In this document: positions 4,930 to 10,423 of the stretch, in pieces | Numbering within the stretch: position 1 is the stretch's first letter | Layout of the letters: every line of letters begins with the position of its first letter | Assembly (NCBI GenBank): GCA_039591655.1 | Contig: JBDHDE010000074.1 | Coordinates: 1-10,423, forward strand | From: Gemmatimonadota bacterium | GTDB lineage: Bacteria; Gemmatimonadota; Gemmatimonadetes; Gemmatimonadales; GWC2-71-9 | Direction: 5' to 3' | Length of the DNA: 10,423 nucleotides | The notes under the pieces: model-generated | What the model was told of the DNA's origin: nothing | Database searches by the model: none | Seen by the model: the letters and a program-made list of their open reading frames with translations, nothing else | Program-made: the position numbers and the translations under genes

Positions 4930-5928
4930 TCAGCGTGCCACGTGCCGCGCTCGCAACTCCTGGAGCGCGCCCCGCACGTAGTTCCGCGTCATCTCCTTCC
5001 GCCACGCCAGCCCGAAATCGGTGTTGTCCATCGGTTTGGAAGGCTTGAAGGCGGCTGCGGCGGCCGCCTCGATGGCGTCGTCCTCCAGCTCCGTGCCGAC
5101 GACAGCCCCGGCTGCAGCCGGCACCGGCATCGGATAGCTGGCCACCGCTCCCAGAACGACTCGTGCATCGGCCACCAGGTCTCCGTCCCATCTGATCCAT
5201 GCAGCCACGCCGAGGACCGGAAAGTCGAACGACCCTCGCCGTCGCAGCTTCCAGTAGGTCGCGTCCCATCCGTCCGGCGGAGGCAGGCGGACTTCGGTGA
5301 GGATCTCGTCCGGGTGTTTGGCCAGATAGCGGATCCCGTCGTCGTTGAAGAAATCGGATGCGGGGATCGCACGCTCATCGTCGGTGCCGGCGAGCACGAA
5401 CTCGGCCCCCAGTGCCACCGCAACCGGGGCCGTGTCGCTGGAGTTGACGGCCCAGCAGCGGGGACTCGCCGGCGCCACCCAGCAAATCTCACCGTCCCGC
5501 TTCATACAGAAGTCGATGGCCTTCCGCCACTCATATGTCTGATTGTAGTAGTTGCACCGCGTGTCGAGGCAGAGGTTACCACCGAACGTTCCCATGTTTC
5601 GCAGCAGCGGCGTGCTCACCAGCTCCGCGGCCCTCGTCAGAGCCGGATAGCCTAGCGGGAGACGGCGGTGGGTGTGCACTTGCGTGAGGGTCACGCCGGC
5701 CCCGATCGCCACCTCCGAGCCGCCAGTTCCCCCGGTGATCCGGCGCAAGGCCCGGATGCCGGCGAGGGAGATCACGACTCTCGGCGTCTGGTGGCGCCGC
5801 TTCATGTTGGGATACAAATCGGTCCCGCCCGCCACGTACATCCCGTCCGGGCCCGCGTCGTGCTTCATCCGAAGCGCCTGTCGCACGCTCTTGGGCTCGA
5901 GGTAAGTGAACTCGGGAAGTCGCAGCAC
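4930..5928 (-). CDS. Xanthine-dehydrogenase-family FAD subunit with [4Fe-4S] insertion (4-hydroxybenzoyl-CoA reductase beta/HcrB-like)
   Basis: FAD motifs AGGTDL and LRNMGTFGGNLC. Insertion C-x15-C-x7-C-x8-C at 5455-5556 (TRCNYYNQTYEWRKAIDFCMKRDGEICWVAPASPRC). C-terminal KLRRRGSFDF. Confidence 0.92.
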   Translation of the reverse strand: MLRLPEFTYLEPKSVRQALRMKHDAGPDGMYVAGGTDLYPNMKRRHQTPRVVISLAGIRALRRITGGTGGSEVAIGAGVTLTQVHTHRRLPLGYPALTRAAELVSTPLLRNMGTFGGNLCLDTRCNYYNQTYEWRKAIDFCMKRDGEICWVAPASPRCWAVNSSDTAPVAVALGAEFVLAGTDDERAIPASDFFNDDGIRYLAKHPDEILTEVRLPPPDGWDATYWKLRRRGSFDFPVLGVAAWIRWDGDLVADARVVLGAVASYPMPVPAAAGAVVGTELEDDAIEAAAAAAFKPSKPMDNTDFGLAWRKEMTRNYVRGALQELRARHVAR

Positions 5929-5937
5929 GCCTCGCCG

Positions 5938-6510
5938 TCACTCCTTCCAGCGGATGTCGAACTCCACCGCCCAATCCCCACTGGGCAAGAGTCGCCGATT
6001 GCGTTCCGCGACCCGGACGGCCCGGCCGCCCGAGAGGGTCACAGCCTTGGTCGAGTAGCCGAGGCAGGCCGGCCCCAACCAGTCGAGGAACATCTCCGGT
6101 AGCTCGAACCTCACCTGCGCCGAGCCCTTCTCAGCCTTCGGGACCTCGACCTTGCCCACGACGAAGAACCGGGTCCACAGCTTGGGGTAATTGCCGATCA
6201 CGAACGAGGGATTCGCGAATCTGAAGAAGATCTTGTACACCGCGCTGAGACTACGGTCGGCGATGTACTCGTACATCCTGGCAAGCTCACGATCGTCACC
6301 CGCGCCGGTCTCGGCCGCAACGGCTGCGGCCATGGCCTTGAACGCGGTGAACGAGTACGCACCGAACGGAACCAGCACCCCGGTCCACACTTTCGCGTTT
6401 TGCTCATGAAGTCGCTGGAGGGCGTGGCGCCACACGTCCTCGCCGTGCTTCTCGAGGATGTACTCCTTCGCGAACACGAAATTGACGCCCTTCGCGACTT
6501 CGTCGTCCAT
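5938..6510 (-). CDS. Hypothetical protein, H-NOX/V4R-like fold (possibly DUF2378-like), apparently lacking the heme ligands
   Basis: N-terminal KGVNFVFAKEYILEKHGEDVW, PFGAYS, YKIFF and C-terminal VEFDIRW follow the H-NOX/V4R pattern. ATG 6510 has a GGGAG RBS. An alternative ATG at 6540 overlaps the upstream stop (TGATG). Confidence 0.7.
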   Translation of the reverse strand: MDDEVAKGVNFVFAKEYILEKHGEDVWRHALQRLHEQNAKVWTGVLVPFGAYSFTAFKAMAAAVAAETGAGDDRELARMYEYIADRSLSAVYKIFFRFANPSFVIGNYPKLWTRFFVVGKVEVPKAEKGSAQVRFELPEMFLDWLGPACLGYSTKAVTLSGGRAVRVAERNRRLLPSGDWAVEFDIRWKE

Positions 6511-6539
6511 GGCGCTCCCGCGGGTCGGCGAGTGCTCCA

Positions 6540-8993
6540 TCAGTGCCGGCGCTCCTGGGGAAAGGAGCGCCTCATGGATCGCTCTGCCCCGTCCGTTGCC
6601 CGACCGTCGCCGCCCTCCCAGGGCGGAGGTACCCGCGTCGGCTTCGGCCAGTTGATCTCCGGAAACGACGCAGGTCCGTAACGCGGTTCTTCTCCTTGCT
6701 TTCCTCGCTTGATTGCCTTCAGGACTTTCTCGGGCATGATGGGGACCTCATCGACCCGGACACCGACCGCGTCGTGCACGGCGTTGGCGATGGCCGGAGC
6801 GACTGGGAGCAACGGTCCCTGTCCCACCTCTTTCGCCCCGAACGGGCCGCTCGGATCGGGATCCTCGATGAGGTAGGTCACGACATCGCACATCTCGAGC
6901 GTCGTTGGGCTCTTGTACTCCAACATCGACGGGATCTTGTGCACGACGCCCCGGTTCGACCGATACGCCATCTCCTCCATCAACGTCTCGCCCAGCCCCA
7001 TGTACACGCCGCCCTCGACCTGTCCCACCACGGTGACCGGGTTGATGCAGCGCCCGACGTCGTGGGCGATCCAAATCCTCGGAACCGTGACGACGCCGCT
7101 GGGAGGGTCCACCTCGACCTCTGCCACTGCCGCGCTGTAGGAGTACGCCGGTGACGGCCCCACTCCGGCTCCGCGGTAGCGACCGGGGCTTGGTGGGGGC
7201 GTGTACGACCCCACCGTGCCTACCGTCCCCTCAGCCGCCTCCGCGAGCTGCACCGCTTCGGCGAAGCTCATGCCGTTATCCGGATCCTCGACGTCGAACA
7301 CCCGGCTCTCCGCGAACGCGAGGCGCTCCGGGTGCACCCCGAGCCGCTGCCGGGCGTGCCGCGCCAGGATCTCGCGGGCTCGCTCGGCGGCCTGCAGCGC
7401 GGCGTTGCCGCTCATGAGCGTCACACGGCTCGAGTAGCTACCCAGGTCCACCGGTGTCAGGTCCGTGTCCGCCGTGACCACCTGTATGTCCCCCACTTCT
7501 ACCCCCAGCACCTCGGCCACGATGTAGGCGAGGACGGAATCGGAGCCCTGCCCGATGTCGGTCGACCCGCAGAACACGGTGACGCCTCCGCCTCGGTCGA
7601 GCTTGAGCTGCACGCCGGAGTGGGGCATTTGGTTCCAGTAGATCGGCAGTCCGGCGCCGCTTATGTAGCTCGAGCAGGCGAGCCCCACACCAAGGCCGTA
7701 GGGGAGGCGACGGAACTTCTCAGTCCAACCGGCCCCTTCGGTTACGCGCCGTAAACACGCGCCCAATCCCATCGTGCCGATCGTGAGGTAGTTGGCGGTC
7801 ACGGAGTCGGGTGGGACGAGGTGCCTGAGCCGCAGCTCCGCCGGGTCCATCCCCAGGTCCTCGGCGAGCTTGTCCATGTGCACCTCGAGGGCATAGCGCG
7901 GCTGCGGAGTGCCGTGGCCGCGCTTGGGCCCGCACGGCGCCTTGTTGGTGAAGACCCGCGCGCCCTGGAACCGGTAGCGCTCCACGTGGTAGGTCGTCGT
8001 CTGGAGCGCACCGGTGTAATACGTGCTCGCGACCCCGTAGGAACCGTAGGCGCCTCCGTCGAGGAGCGTCTTGAAGTGCATGCCCTTGATGGTGCCGTCC
8101 TTCGTGACGCCGGTCTTCACCCACATTAGCGTCGGGTGGCGGCCGCGATGGCAGTAGAAGACCTCCTCCCGGGTGAGAGCCATCTTCACCGGCCGTCCGG
8201 TCATCATAGCGAGCTTGGCCACCGCGATTTCGTGACTGAAGGGGTCGCTCTTGCCGCCGAACCCGCCGCCGTGGGCACACGCGATGACGCGGATGCGTGA
8301 CGCGGGGAGCTCCAACACTTTGGCCAGCGCCCGGTGCACGTAGTGCGGCGTCTGCGTTGAGCTCCACAGCGTGAGCTTCCCGTCGGCGGACCATTCGGCG
8401 AGGGCGGCGTGTTGCTCCATCGGGAGGTGCGTATTGCCCTCGTAGAACAGCAGGTCCTCACGTACGTGGTCGGCCTCGGCGAAACCCTGCTCCACGTCGC
8501 CGAACTCCAGATCGACCAGCTTGTGGAAGTTGCCGTCGGGGCCGTAGTCGTGTATGCGCGGCTCTGGGGTTCTCACCGCCTCCTCCGCCGAGGCGATGGG
8601 CGGCAAGTCCTGGTAGGAGACCTCGATCAGGTCGAGGGCCGAGGTGGCGACCTCCTCGCTGACTGCCGCCACGGCCGCAACCGGATCGCCGATGAACCGC
8701 GCCACGTCCGGGGCGAGAACGTGCTCGTCCTGGCTCACCGGGAGGATGCCGAAGGGAATCGGGAGATCTTTCCCCGTGAGCACGGCCTTTACCCCGTCGA
8801 GGTCCTGGGCCTTGGAGGTGTCGACCTGCAGGATCCGCGCATGGGGCCTGGTGCTGCGTAGCAGCTTGGCGTGCAGCATGCGTGGCAGGACGAGGTCGTC
8901 GGCGTATTTCGTCTGCCCCGTGACCTTCGCAACGGCGTCCACCTTGCGCTGGGGCGTGCCGACGACGCGGAGCTGCTGCCTACCGCCGGCCAT
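6540..8993 (-). CDS. Xanthine-dehydrogenase-family molybdopterin-binding subunit (4-hydroxybenzoyl-CoA reductase alpha/HcrA-like), 817 aa
   Basis: KVTGQTKYADD, LRSTRPHARI, STQTPH, GGGFGGK, HRGR, CGPKRGHG, DIGQGS, DLGSYSSRVT, GQVEGG, GPFGAKEVGQG. ATG 8993 has an AGGAG RBS and overlaps the small-subunit gene by 14 bp. Confidence 0.93.
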   Translation of the reverse strand: MAGGRQQLRVVGTPQRKVDAVAKVTGQTKYADDLVLPRMLHAKLLRSTRPHARILQVDTSKAQDLDGVKAVLTGKDLPIPFGILPVSQDEHVLAPDVARFIGDPVAAVAAVSEEVATSALDLIEVSYQDLPPIASAEEAVRTPEPRIHDYGPDGNFHKLVDLEFGDVEQGFAEADHVREDLLFYEGNTHLPMEQHAALAEWSADGKLTLWSSTQTPHYVHRALAKVLELPASRIRVIACAHGGGFGGKSDPFSHEIAVAKLAMMTGRPVKMALTREEVFYCHRGRHPTLMWVKTGVTKDGTIKGMHFKTLLDGGAYGSYGVASTYYTGALQTTTYHVERYRFQGARVFTNKAPCGPKRGHGTPQPRYALEVHMDKLAEDLGMDPAELRLRHLVPPDSVTANYLTIGTMGLGACLRRVTEGAGWTEKFRRLPYGLGVGLACSSYISGAGLPIYWNQMPHSGVQLKLDRGGGVTVFCGSTDIGQGSDSVLAYIVAEVLGVEVGDIQVVTADTDLTPVDLGSYSSRVTLMSGNAALQAAERAREILARHARQRLGVHPERLAFAESRVFDVEDPDNGMSFAEAVQLAEAAEGTVGTVGSYTPPPSPGRYRGAGVGPSPAYSYSAAVAEVEVDPPSGVVTVPRIWIAHDVGRCINPVTVVGQVEGGVYMGLGETLMEEMAYRSNRGVVHKIPSMLEYKSPTTLEMCDVVTYLIEDPDPSGPFGAKEVGQGPLLPVAPAIANAVHDAVGVRVDEVPIMPEKVLKAIKRGKQGEEPRYGPASFPEINWPKPTRVPPPWEGGDGRATDGAERSMRRSFPQERRH

Positions 8994-9519
8994 GAAGAGA
9001 CTCCTGCGAGGGCTCGGCGGGCTCGCCCCGCATACGGGCAGCGGCGAGCTCCACTGCTTCATAGATCTTCAGATAGCCTGTGCAACGGCAGAGGTTCCCA
9101 GCCAGGGCCTCCTTGATCTCATCACGGGTGGGCGACAGGTTCGCCTCGAGCAGGGCCTTCCCGGTCAGCAGGAACCCCGGGGTGCAATAGCCGCACTGCG
9201 CGGCGCCGAGGTCGGCGAAGGTGGTCTGCAGGGGATGGAGCGTCGGTCCCTCGGCCATCCCCTCGACCGTGTCCACTCGCCTTCCGTCGCACGCCTGGCC
9301 TAGCACCAGGCAGGAGAGCACGGGCATCTCATCCAGCAGCACGGTGCAGGTGCCGCACTCGCCCAGCTCACATCCGTGCTTCGTGCCGGTGAGACCCAGG
9401 TCCTCGCGCAGCACCTCGAGCAGGGTCTTGTGGGGCGCGAACGCGATCTCGACGGGGTCGCCGTTCACCACCAGCCGGATCTGGACTTTCTGGTTTCGCT
9501 TACTCCTGCGGCTGGCCAA
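8980..9519 (-). CDS. Two-[2Fe-2S] small subunit of an XDH-family enzyme (HcrC/CoxS-like)
   Basis: GTKHGCELGECGTCTV...SC and QCGYCTPG...GNLCRCTGY cluster motifs. TTG start with upstream GGAG; the exact start is uncertain. Confidence 0.95.
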   Translation of the reverse strand: MASRRSKRNQKVQIRLVVNGDPVEIAFAPHKTLLEVLREDLGLTGTKHGCELGECGTCTVLLDEMPVLSCLVLGQACDGRRVDTVEGMAEGPTLHPLQTTFADLGAAQCGYCTPGFLLTGKALLEANLSPTRDEIKEALAGNLCRCTGYLKIYEAVELAAARMRGEPAEPSQESLHGRR

Positions 9520-9739
9520 AGAGGAAGGTCTCCGTCTGCTTCGTGAGAAACTGCCGGGCTTCGGGATCGCGCAGGTCCAACCCGTAGTGGTTGATGATGG
9601 CCGTCTGGTGCTGCAGCCAGTCCTGCCAACAGGATTGGCAGATGGAGTCGTAGATCTTGTTTCCCAACTCCCCCGGCAACGGAGGGGCCGTAAGCTGCGC
9701 GCCGCTTCGGCCGCAACGACTGCAATTCACCTCGGCCAT
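9500..9739 (-). CDS. yggX: YggX-family Fe(II)-trafficking / oxidative-damage protection protein (79 aa, four-Cys variant)
   Basis: ATG 9739. PGELGNKIYDSI...WQDWLQHQTAIINHYGL...FLF closely parallels E. coli YggX (PGELGKRIYNEI...WAQWQHKQTMLINEKKL...FLF). Confidence 0.88.
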   Translation of the reverse strand: MAEVNCSRCGRSGAQLTAPPLPGELGNKIYDSICQSCWQDWLQHQTAIINHYGLDLRDPEARQFLTKQTETFLFGQPQE

Positions 9740-9745
9740 GGCCCG

Positions 9746-9751
9746 AATGTA
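9746..9751 (-). promoter_or_regulatory. Candidate -10 element (TACATT) for a leaderless yggX-first transcript
   Basis: Minus strand TACATT-cgggcc-ATG, a 6-nt spacer with no Shine-Dalgarno. Lies in the relatively AT-rich 53-bp divergent gap. Confidence 0.4.
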
Positions 9752-9792
9752 ACCTTGCAATTGACCTGACGCGATACCAGCTTTCGCTCGAC

Positions 9793-10011
9793 ATGATCCC
9801 CGCCGACCCTGCCGTTGGCTTGTGCGCGACCTGCCACCACCGTCGCGTGATCCGCTCCCGCCGCGGATCGGCCTTCTGGTTCTGCAGGTTGTCCGAGGCC
9901 GATCCCCAGTACCCCAGGTATCCGCGGCTACCCATTCTGCAATGCGACGGACACGAGTCCGGGGCCCGTGCAGAGGACCATGGGGAGATCGCGCATGAGG
10001 AAAGCCAATGA
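9793..10011 (+). CDS. 72-aa hypothetical Cys-rich protein (CxxC...C...C), probable metal-binding
   Basis: GLCATCHHRRVIRSRRGSAFWFCRLSEADPQYPRYPRLPILQCDGHE. Its stop overlaps the dipeptidase start (ATGA at 10008-10011). Confidence 0.72.
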   Translation: MIPADPAVGLCATCHHRRVIRSRRGSAFWFCRLSEADPQYPRYPRLPILQCDGHESGARAEDHGEIAHEESQ

Positions 10012-10423
10012 TCGGTGACCGTCTCTTGAAGCTGGCCCTGCTGAGCTGTGTCAGCGTGGTCGTTCCACCCACCGTCAGCGCCCAGGAGAGCGACCAGTAC
10101 TTGGAGCGGGCCAAGGAACTCATGCGGCAGGTGCCCCTCATCGACGGCCACAACGACCTCCCCTGGAGCCTGCGGGTCAGCTACGGAATCAGCGTCGACT
10201 CGTTCGACCTCTCGCAGCGCCAATCGCAGGGTCACACCGACATACCGCGGCTCCGTGAGGGATTGGTGGGCGCGCAGTTCTGGTCCACGTTCACGCCGTC
10301 CATCTTTGGGAGCGGTGGGGCGGCGCGGGCGGGCATGGAGCAGGGCGATATCGTCCACCGCCTGGTGGAGCGCTACCCAGAGGCCTTCGAGCTGGCCGGA
10401 ACGGCCGCCGACATCGTGCGGAT
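10008..10423 (+). CDS. Membrane/renal-type dipeptidase (peptidase M19), exported; 3'-truncated by the window edge
   Basis: Manual translation: MIGDRLLKLALLSCVSVVVPPTVSA-QESDQY (signal peptide), PLIDGHNDLPW, GHTDIPRLREGLVGAQFWS. GAGGAA RBS upstream. Absent from the ORF track because there is no stop in the window. Confidence 0.92.
   Translation, partial: MIGDRLLKLALLSCVSVVVPPTVSAQESDQYLERAKELMRQVPLIDGHNDLPWSLRVSYGISVDSFDLSQRQSQGHTDIPRLREGLVGAQFWSTFTPSIFGSGGAARAGMEQGDIVHRLVERYPEAFELAGTAADIVR

Follow-up and report, generated by a model that had tools for sequence, protein, structure and literature searches.

The best-described relative of the enzyme considered here is 4-hydroxybenzoyl-coenzyme A (CoA) reductase, HcrCAB, of Thauera aromatica (PDB 1RM6/1SB3; TIGR03193-5), whose mechanism is presented as unsettled between one-electron and two-electron schemes in the accessible text of bioRxiv 10.1101/2025.01.17.632430. 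A catalytic glutamate (Glu) is described as conserved and essential in the accessible portions of PMC13753352, bioRxiv 10.1101/2025.01.17.632430, PMC11760930, PMC13653126, PMC10420851, PMC7500099, and PMC4539516, and those portions make no mention of a natural glutamine (Gln) at this position. We analyzed a stretch of 10,423 nucleotides (hereafter, the window) from a Gemmatimonadota bacterium (assembly GCA_039591655.1, contig JBDHDE010000074.1), in which a minus-strand operon encodes an HcrA-like molybdenum (Mo) subunit (alpha) carrying Gln724 in place of this Glu, along with an iron-sulfur (gamma) and a flavin adenine dinucleotide (FAD; beta) subunit. We identified a clade-wide, selected loss of the catalytic Glu in an Hcr-like enzyme that falls outside HcrCAB as defined.

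The window operon has HcrCAB as its best sequence and fold match and resembles it in the gamma-alpha-beta gene order, in the four-Cys loop of the FAD subunit, and in the Mo-site Gln, Arg, and His, the Y-S-S-R motif, and a Glu upstream of the catalytic position. It differs in that the alpha subunit, about 41% identical to HcrA in the structural alignment, does not match Glu726 and the HcrA-type active-site loops, having Gln, P-K, and G-G-K-S-D where HcrA has Glu726, A-M, and G-A-R-T-E, and in that the operon is unlinked to aromatic genes in 80 loci and its subunits score below the profile cut-offs. TIGR03194 was the best NCBIfam model for alpha (836.1 bits, cut-off 994.55) and TIGR03195 for beta (278.2 bits, cut-off 404.55), with TIGR03193 a near-tie second for gamma (174.8 bits, cut-off 257.8). 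The alpha domains PF01315, PF02738, and PF20256 place the enzyme in the xanthine oxidase family fold, and the [2Fe-2S] and FAD subunits are present. Xanthine oxidoreductase, CoxL, QorL, and PaoC share the fold and domains at 24-29% identity, have Glu in the alignments shown, and work in the oxidative direction. The urolithin C dehydroxylase Ucd/Ucdh of Enterocloster, compared by description, is likewise a xanthine-oxidase-family reductive phenol dehydroxylase with molybdopterin cytosine dinucleotide (MCD), FAD, and two [2Fe-2S] clusters, as given in the accessible text of PMC11760930 and bioRxiv 10.1101/2025.01.17.632430, but the former source indicates that it retains Glu (E741) and is without the [4Fe-4S] loop. 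In Desulfatiglans anilini, Hcr-annotated subunits of a presumed 4-aminobenzoyl-CoA reductase have been tied to benzoyl-CoA formation (PMC7500099, in the part available). Our literature searches, motif searches included, found no paper on the Gln clade and nothing usable about mutants of the Glu or the geometry of the loops, with most subscription journals outside their coverage.

The sequence-only reading had reported GAKEVGQG with Gln at 6819-6821, and both the minus-strand codons at 6839-6816 (GGG GCG AAA GAG GTG GGA CAG GGA, G-A-K-E-V-G-Q-G) and the intact 817-amino-acid frame agree with it. It had also placed a Glu at this site in Thauera HcrA, which the phmmer alignment to 1rm6_A bears out (E 8e-184), setting "gakevgq 724" over "GAKEASE 726" ungapped around the site; three more solved family members in the phmmer alignment have Glu in the same column. 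Five database proteins were 100% identical to the window protein across residues 400-790, and all 120 protein-search matches had Gln. We collected 80 loci from Gemmatimonadota, Acidobacteriota, and one Planctomycetota, 9 of which end short of the catalytic codon; the 71 that reach it all encode Gln (60 CAG, 11 CAA). Marine-sediment contigs of runs X1 and X2 (study P1) and X5 (study P2) span the codon and show no other letter, although X1 may be the source of the window, and run X3 does not bridge the codon. The ratio of nonsynonymous to synonymous substitution rates (dN/dS) was 0.09-0.17 in 9 of 9 comparisons with close loci, and the alpha gene is under purifying selection. A sequencing error or a private mutation in a decaying gene, which the earlier reading had named as a way to be wrong, is thus ruled out by the identical proteins, the uniform matches and loci, the contigs from two studies, and the low dN/dS, and its probability is negligible. 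In one genome (G006, contig C349, 73% complete), the alpha gene is split into separate frames around residues 709-724 (L106), an assembly error or a pseudogene. Among plasmid records, 620 matched, all at <60% identity, and the 40 listed included no Gln-clade member.

The Gln rows form one clade among mostly Glu-type relatives. The catalytic column was read in the 150 best representatives (50% clustering). It is Glu in 123 and Gln in 6, whereas 7 have a gap and 14 carry another residue; about five of those 14 end in garbled or truncated sequence, and the others have D, M, R, N, L, or I in motifs that look intact. The earlier claim of a nearly invariant Glu therefore stands as a rule for the family and needs loosening for uncharacterized relatives: judged from these alignments, the catalytic Glu is the rule, but not an absolute one among unstudied relatives. 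Residues Q, R, D, M, N, L, or I occupy the column in intact-looking motifs of P0274, P0371, P0302, P0309, P0335, P0343, P0329, P0355, P0375, P0389, and P0325, and such non-Glu members are, as far as the motifs tell, independent losses of Glu. A quick-search tree of 51 rows placed 31 Gln rows in one group (Shimodaira-Hasegawa-like approximate likelihood ratio test, SH-aLRT, 100) with short inner branches and a stem of 1.74, a length that is overstated because this tree was without the nearest sisters. In an 18-row tree built by careful search with sisters included, the Gln rows P0001 (the window protein), P0242, P0250, and P0245 form one clade (99/97) adjoining Glu-type groups such as P0244 (Ignavibacteriales) and P0251, and P0274 (Dehalococcoidia) is a separate Gln origin, as P0371 also appears to be. 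FastTree splits off P0245, which would give two Gln origins inside the group of sequences with Pro-Lys (P-K) at the Mo-site loop, but the careful tree and shared residues speak against this. The Glu-type sisters are 51-56% identical to the Gln clade, whose proteins are often labelled 4-hydroxybenzoyl-CoA reductase. The earlier view of a conserved subfamily rather than a decayed gene is upheld: Gln is fixed across three phyla and within one clade, dN/dS is close to 0.1, and the cofactor machinery has been kept.

We compared 55 main-clade sequences with 12 Glu-type P-K relatives and identified 26 columns in which the Gln clade has a residue fixed at 96% or more that none of the relatives shares. 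Glu699, replacing Asp, is the sole acidic one among these. Six of the residues fixed with Gln724 (A321, S322, T326, A328, Q330, and T333) cluster in helix 321-333, a cluster common to the main clade and the P0245 group; the AlphaFold model has a helix at 319-332. By family structures, this helix would line the substrate pocket, and it probably has a role there. Residues 355-357 presumably lie against Mo, again by family structures. Pro355 and Lys356, before the conserved Arg, differ from HcrA and occur in Glu-type relatives and are therefore older than the Glu-to-Gln change. Lys356 was rejected as a Gln-specific compensation, since 10 Glu-type representatives carry P-K too, and it is at most a pre-existing permissive feature. 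Every covering row of the 55 keeps Gln213, Arg357, His359, and the Y-S-S-R motif unchanged, and Glu721 is invariant in 55 of 55. The concern that this upstream Glu might be the shifted catalytic residue was not borne out, as HcrA and every Glu-type sister carry it alongside the canonical Glu. The AlphaFold model of alpha (predicted template modeling score 0.75) had 1RM6 as its best fold match (template modeling score 0.84/0.90), and its predicted local distance difference test scores were <50 at loops 241-248, 355-361, and 713-718, so that it is uninformative on Mo-site geometry.

Table 1. Positions of the operon, its diagnostic residues, and neighboring genes in the window.
Feature	Positions	Strand	Basis or remark
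Molybdopterin (alpha) subunit, HcrA-like, 817 amino acids including Met	6540..8993	minus	intact frame
Two-[2Fe-2S] (gamma) subunit, HcrC-like	8980..9519	minus	NCBIfam/Pfam profile matches
FAD (beta) subunit, HcrB-like	4930..5928	minus	NCBIfam/Pfam profile matches
Four-Cys loop Cx15Cx7Cx8C in the FAD subunit, predicted Hcr-type [4Fe-4S] site	5455..5556	minus	motif
CAG codon, Gln724 of alpha subunit P0001, aligned to Glu726 of HcrA	6819..6821	minus	translation and alignment
Glu721, three residues upstream of Gln724	6828..6830	minus	also in HcrA and every Glu-type sister
Helix 321-333, residues fixed with Gln724	7992..8030	minus	column comparison
Mo-site loop G-P-K-R-G-H-G, A-M in HcrA where P-K stands	7911..7931	minus	alignment; also in Glu-type sisters
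Open reading frame of 200 amino acids between the alpha and beta genes	5938..6540	minus	DUF2378-like lead only
YggX-like Fe(II)-trafficking gene	9500..9780	minus	
M19 dipeptidase gene	10008..10421	plus	divergent
Phosphotransferase (APH) and M23-like domain, off contig end	3..1751	minus	

The predicted [4Fe-4S] loop of the FAD subunit (Table 1) followed the strict pattern in 68 of 77 FAD-subunit matches and was absent from those of 3 loci with a Glu-type large subunit. Six further Gln-type loci fell outside the strict pattern, 5 with a longer loop and 1 not displayed; these pattern-missing FAD subunits belong to loci of one family (L099-L104), five of them having the longer Cys loop with an extra Cys-containing insertion. 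The operon keeps the gene order of HcrCAB except that a genus-specific open reading frame splits alpha from beta. This frame found no match in Pfam and NCBIfam profile searches and is confined to the host genus (11 loci, of which L004 and L085 are one contig), and because of this we did not treat it as a subunit; it is probably a passenger. A feature search linked it to clusters of hypothetical Myxococcota proteins (0.95) and, at 0.93, to a TIGR02265/DUF2378 cluster with the family on 15% of members, and other genomes have different inserts in its place. The YggX-like gene lies directly upstream of the operon and recurs at 17 loci, the M19 dipeptidase gene at 30, and the phosphotransferase gene matches the N-terminal part of PRK06148-type fusions.

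We also examined genes for the Mo cofactor and further family members. XdhC, which is reported to insert the sulfurated cofactor (PMC13653126, accessible part), was found in 35 of 41 related genomes. These include G024 (98% complete) and G003 (78%), whose sole MoCoBD_2 match is the Gln type; searches did not find XdhC in G014, in G040, or in the 4 genomes (98-100% complete) that have no MoCoBD_2 match. About 2-3 kb separate xdhC from the operon in L143-L145 of Acidobacteriota (Pfam-checked for L143). A MobA/MocA-like family occurs in 13 of 80 loci, and in L053 and L075, the two that were read, it directly follows the FAD gene. The host (G000) has two further family members, a Glu-type one on contig C54 and a distant one on C25. 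The C54 paralog (L081, 7816-11568) is HcrA-like, fused to a [2Fe-2S] domain (933 amino acids, 46.6% identity), its FAD subunit is without the four-Cys loop, and a relative in G027 sits within a true bcr cluster (L128). An obligate Glu-type partner for the Gln enzyme was rejected, as this paralog class occurs in just 3 of 26 Gln-type genomes.

In the host, BzdN, BzdO, Had, and Oah (all on contig C35) and BzdQ (on C87) scored above cut-off, unlinked to the operon, as did IorAB. We scored a genome of the 41-genome Gemmatimonadota-group set as Gln-type at a match of at least 64% identity, and 26 qualified, with the copies of G005 and G006 in pieces and the unpublished G023 counted as one row. A BcrB or BoxB match (E<=1e-10) was identified in 25 of the 26 vs 3 of the 15 other genomes, although these matches are mostly below cut-off (18 BcrB-like, 14 BoxB-like); the BoxB-like genes adjoin crotonases, an aldehyde dehydrogenase, and a thiolase. 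All four Acidobacteriota Gln-type genomes tested had BoxB above cut-off and none had BcrB, and the Planctomycetota Gln-type genome had weak BoxB/BcrB matches only. We also searched a sample of 71 genomes of the Acidobacteriota class that includes the genome of L053, where 31 had a Gln-type match (Gln read directly in 6), 4 had a Glu-type operon (about 50% identity), and none had both. BoxB was present in 14 of the 31 Gln-type genomes, 3 of the 4 Glu-type genomes, and 4 of the 36 with neither. The link to benzoyl-CoA genes is thus strong in the Gemmatimonadota group and partial in the Acidobacteriota class. Further, in L144-L146 a TetR regulator gene immediately precedes the operon; its product shares 41-44% identity with the TetR at the head of the host had-oah-bzdNO cluster, compared with 20-29% for TetRs from the remaining aromatic clusters that we tested.

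Several related loci were also seen. The host carries two class I benzoyl-CoA reductase-like sets (L126 on C87, L127 on C35), with the bzd type above cut-off; its second BcrB/BcrC-like set, on C87 and below cut-off, adjoins a 930-amino-acid GltD-like Fe-S flavoprotein, and this second reductase type occurs in 18 of 41 relatives. A conserved cluster in L130, L131, L132, L135, and L136 comprises TetR, crotonases, an aldehyde dehydrogenase, a pcaF-like thiolase, a GDPD-like protein, a 3-hydroxyacyl-CoA dehydrogenase, an amidohydrolase, and a short BoxB-like di-iron protein (about 372 amino acids, 220-236 bits vs a cut-off of 499). A DMSO-reductase-family enzyme with Fe-S and membrane subunits lies beside a class III CoA transferase on host contig C5 (L154, 5996-10303); the set reached no family cut-off, and we take it, by analogy, as a candidate for an arylacetyl-CoA oxidation step. 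The 4 Acidobacteriota genomes with a Glu-type gamma-alpha-beta operon (L139-L142) are without the Gln type, and the four-Cys loop was read in L139-L141.

By analogy, the Gln-type enzyme probably works like HcrCAB, and the explanation that we favor, at a probability of roughly 0.5, is an active Hcr-like enzyme that would reductively strip an aromatic CoA thioester of a para substituent, with OH the likeliest, and feed benzoyl-CoA breakdown. Electrons would enter at the extra [4Fe-4S] cluster and pass through FAD and the two [2Fe-2S] clusters to a sulfurated Mo-MCD center, where Mo(IV) would take the substrate oxygen as the para-OH leaves the aryl-CoA. A study by Unciuleac in 2004 is said to have described inverted electron flow in Hcr. 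Gln724 may hydrogen-bond or position a Mo-bound OH or water but could not shuttle a proton; the proton would therefore have to come from another source, possibly Mo-SH, water, or a pre-existing ionizable residue (Lys356, His359, or Asp249). The chemistry may accordingly differ from that of Glu-type enzymes. A number of observations weigh against this explanation. All three subunits fall short of the Hcr equivalog cut-offs, and the C54 Glu-type paralog outscores the Gln type on TIGR03194 (959 vs 836 bits). The operon has no aromatic-pathway neighbors in the window, and no aromatic-pathway family is among those common to at least 4 of the 80 loci, an assessment made on representative sequences and, for 6 families, on Pfam matches as well. 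In the host, no benzoate-CoA ligase scored above cut-off (best 217.6 vs 375.25), and gene searches identified no route to 4-hydroxybenzoyl-CoA. Among the Acidobacteriota-class genomes, BoxB was not found in 17 of the 31 with the Gln type, where BcrB was not searched, and no PaaA scored above cut-off in the 71. The co-occurrence counts span kin genomes and hence are not independent, no compensating acidic residue is fixed with Gln724 across the 55 and 12 sequences, and reviews call the Glu essential and also propose it as the proton donor in oxygen abstraction (PMC13653126, PMC10420851, in their accessible parts).

The same 17 genomes and the same want of a shared aromatic neighbor family would suit an active Mo enzyme with a substrate unrelated to benzoyl-CoA, running a reductive or oxygen-transfer reaction that needs no base from a vertically inherited stand-alone operon, as would the remodelled helix 321-333 and the long stem. 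We regard this as doubtful, though a serious alternative, as ring-attacking genes in 25 of 26 Gln-type vs 3 of 15 other genomes, the likeness of the TetR to the bzd cluster regulator, and the retained four-Cys loop all speak against it. An aminobenzoyl-CoA reductase (deaminating), in which the same architecture would remove the amino group from 4- or 2-aminobenzoyl-CoA, fits the co-occurrence data in that its product would still be benzoyl-CoA, and a neutral amide may be better suited than a carboxylate to a nitrogen leaving group. In D. anilini, aniline and 4-aminobenzoate strongly induce beta and small subunits annotated as Hcr, and the authors of that work suggested reductive deamination (PMC7500099). 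However, the leaving-group argument is our own, the D. anilini large-subunit entry is a 183-amino-acid fragment, and no aminobenzoate gene was seen beside the operon, which leaves a deaminase unlikely.

The Mo site could instead be catalytically dead, with the complex kept for electron transfer, sensing, or partnering a Glu-type paralog, given that a residue called essential is gone and that the host has a 46.6% identical Glu-type paralog. Such a paralog is found in only 3 of the 26 Gln-type genomes, XdhC is retained where the Gln type is the sole family member found, and the Mo-site residues Gln213, Arg357, and His359 and the Y-S-S-R motif are invariant in covering rows, all of which makes a dead site distinctly unlikely. 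Gln followed by Gly is a context that favors deamidation, and Gln724 precedes Gly; together with the invariance of Glu721, this would allow a carboxylate still to be used, either by Glu721 swinging in or by post-translational deamidation of Gln724. Yet Glu721 is equally invariant in HcrA and in Glu-type sisters that have the canonical Glu, deamidation leaves the fixation of Gln codons unexplained, and a hidden carboxylate of either kind is highly improbable.

The xanthine-oxidase mechanism is built around the active-site Glu. Naturally occurring and selected, the Glu-to-Gln clade and its close Glu-bearing sisters provide a ready pair for testing the role of this Glu in the reductive direction, with the Glu-type operons L139-L142 serving as the natural control pair to the Gln type. 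At its boldest, which we consider rather unlikely, the finding would represent a xanthine-oxidase-family enzyme that cleaves C-N or C-O bonds of aryl compounds at Mo with no catalytic carboxylate, possibly the aminobenzoyl-CoA reductase (deaminating). It would be widespread among Gemmatimonadota, Acidobacteriota, and Planctomycetota of soils and sediments, and would supply benzoyl-CoA to anaerobic (Bcr/Bzd) as well as oxygen-dependent (Box) routes. Since soil and sediment genomes commonly carry the clade, its true substrate matters for interpreting the turnover of aromatic carbon in metagenomes.

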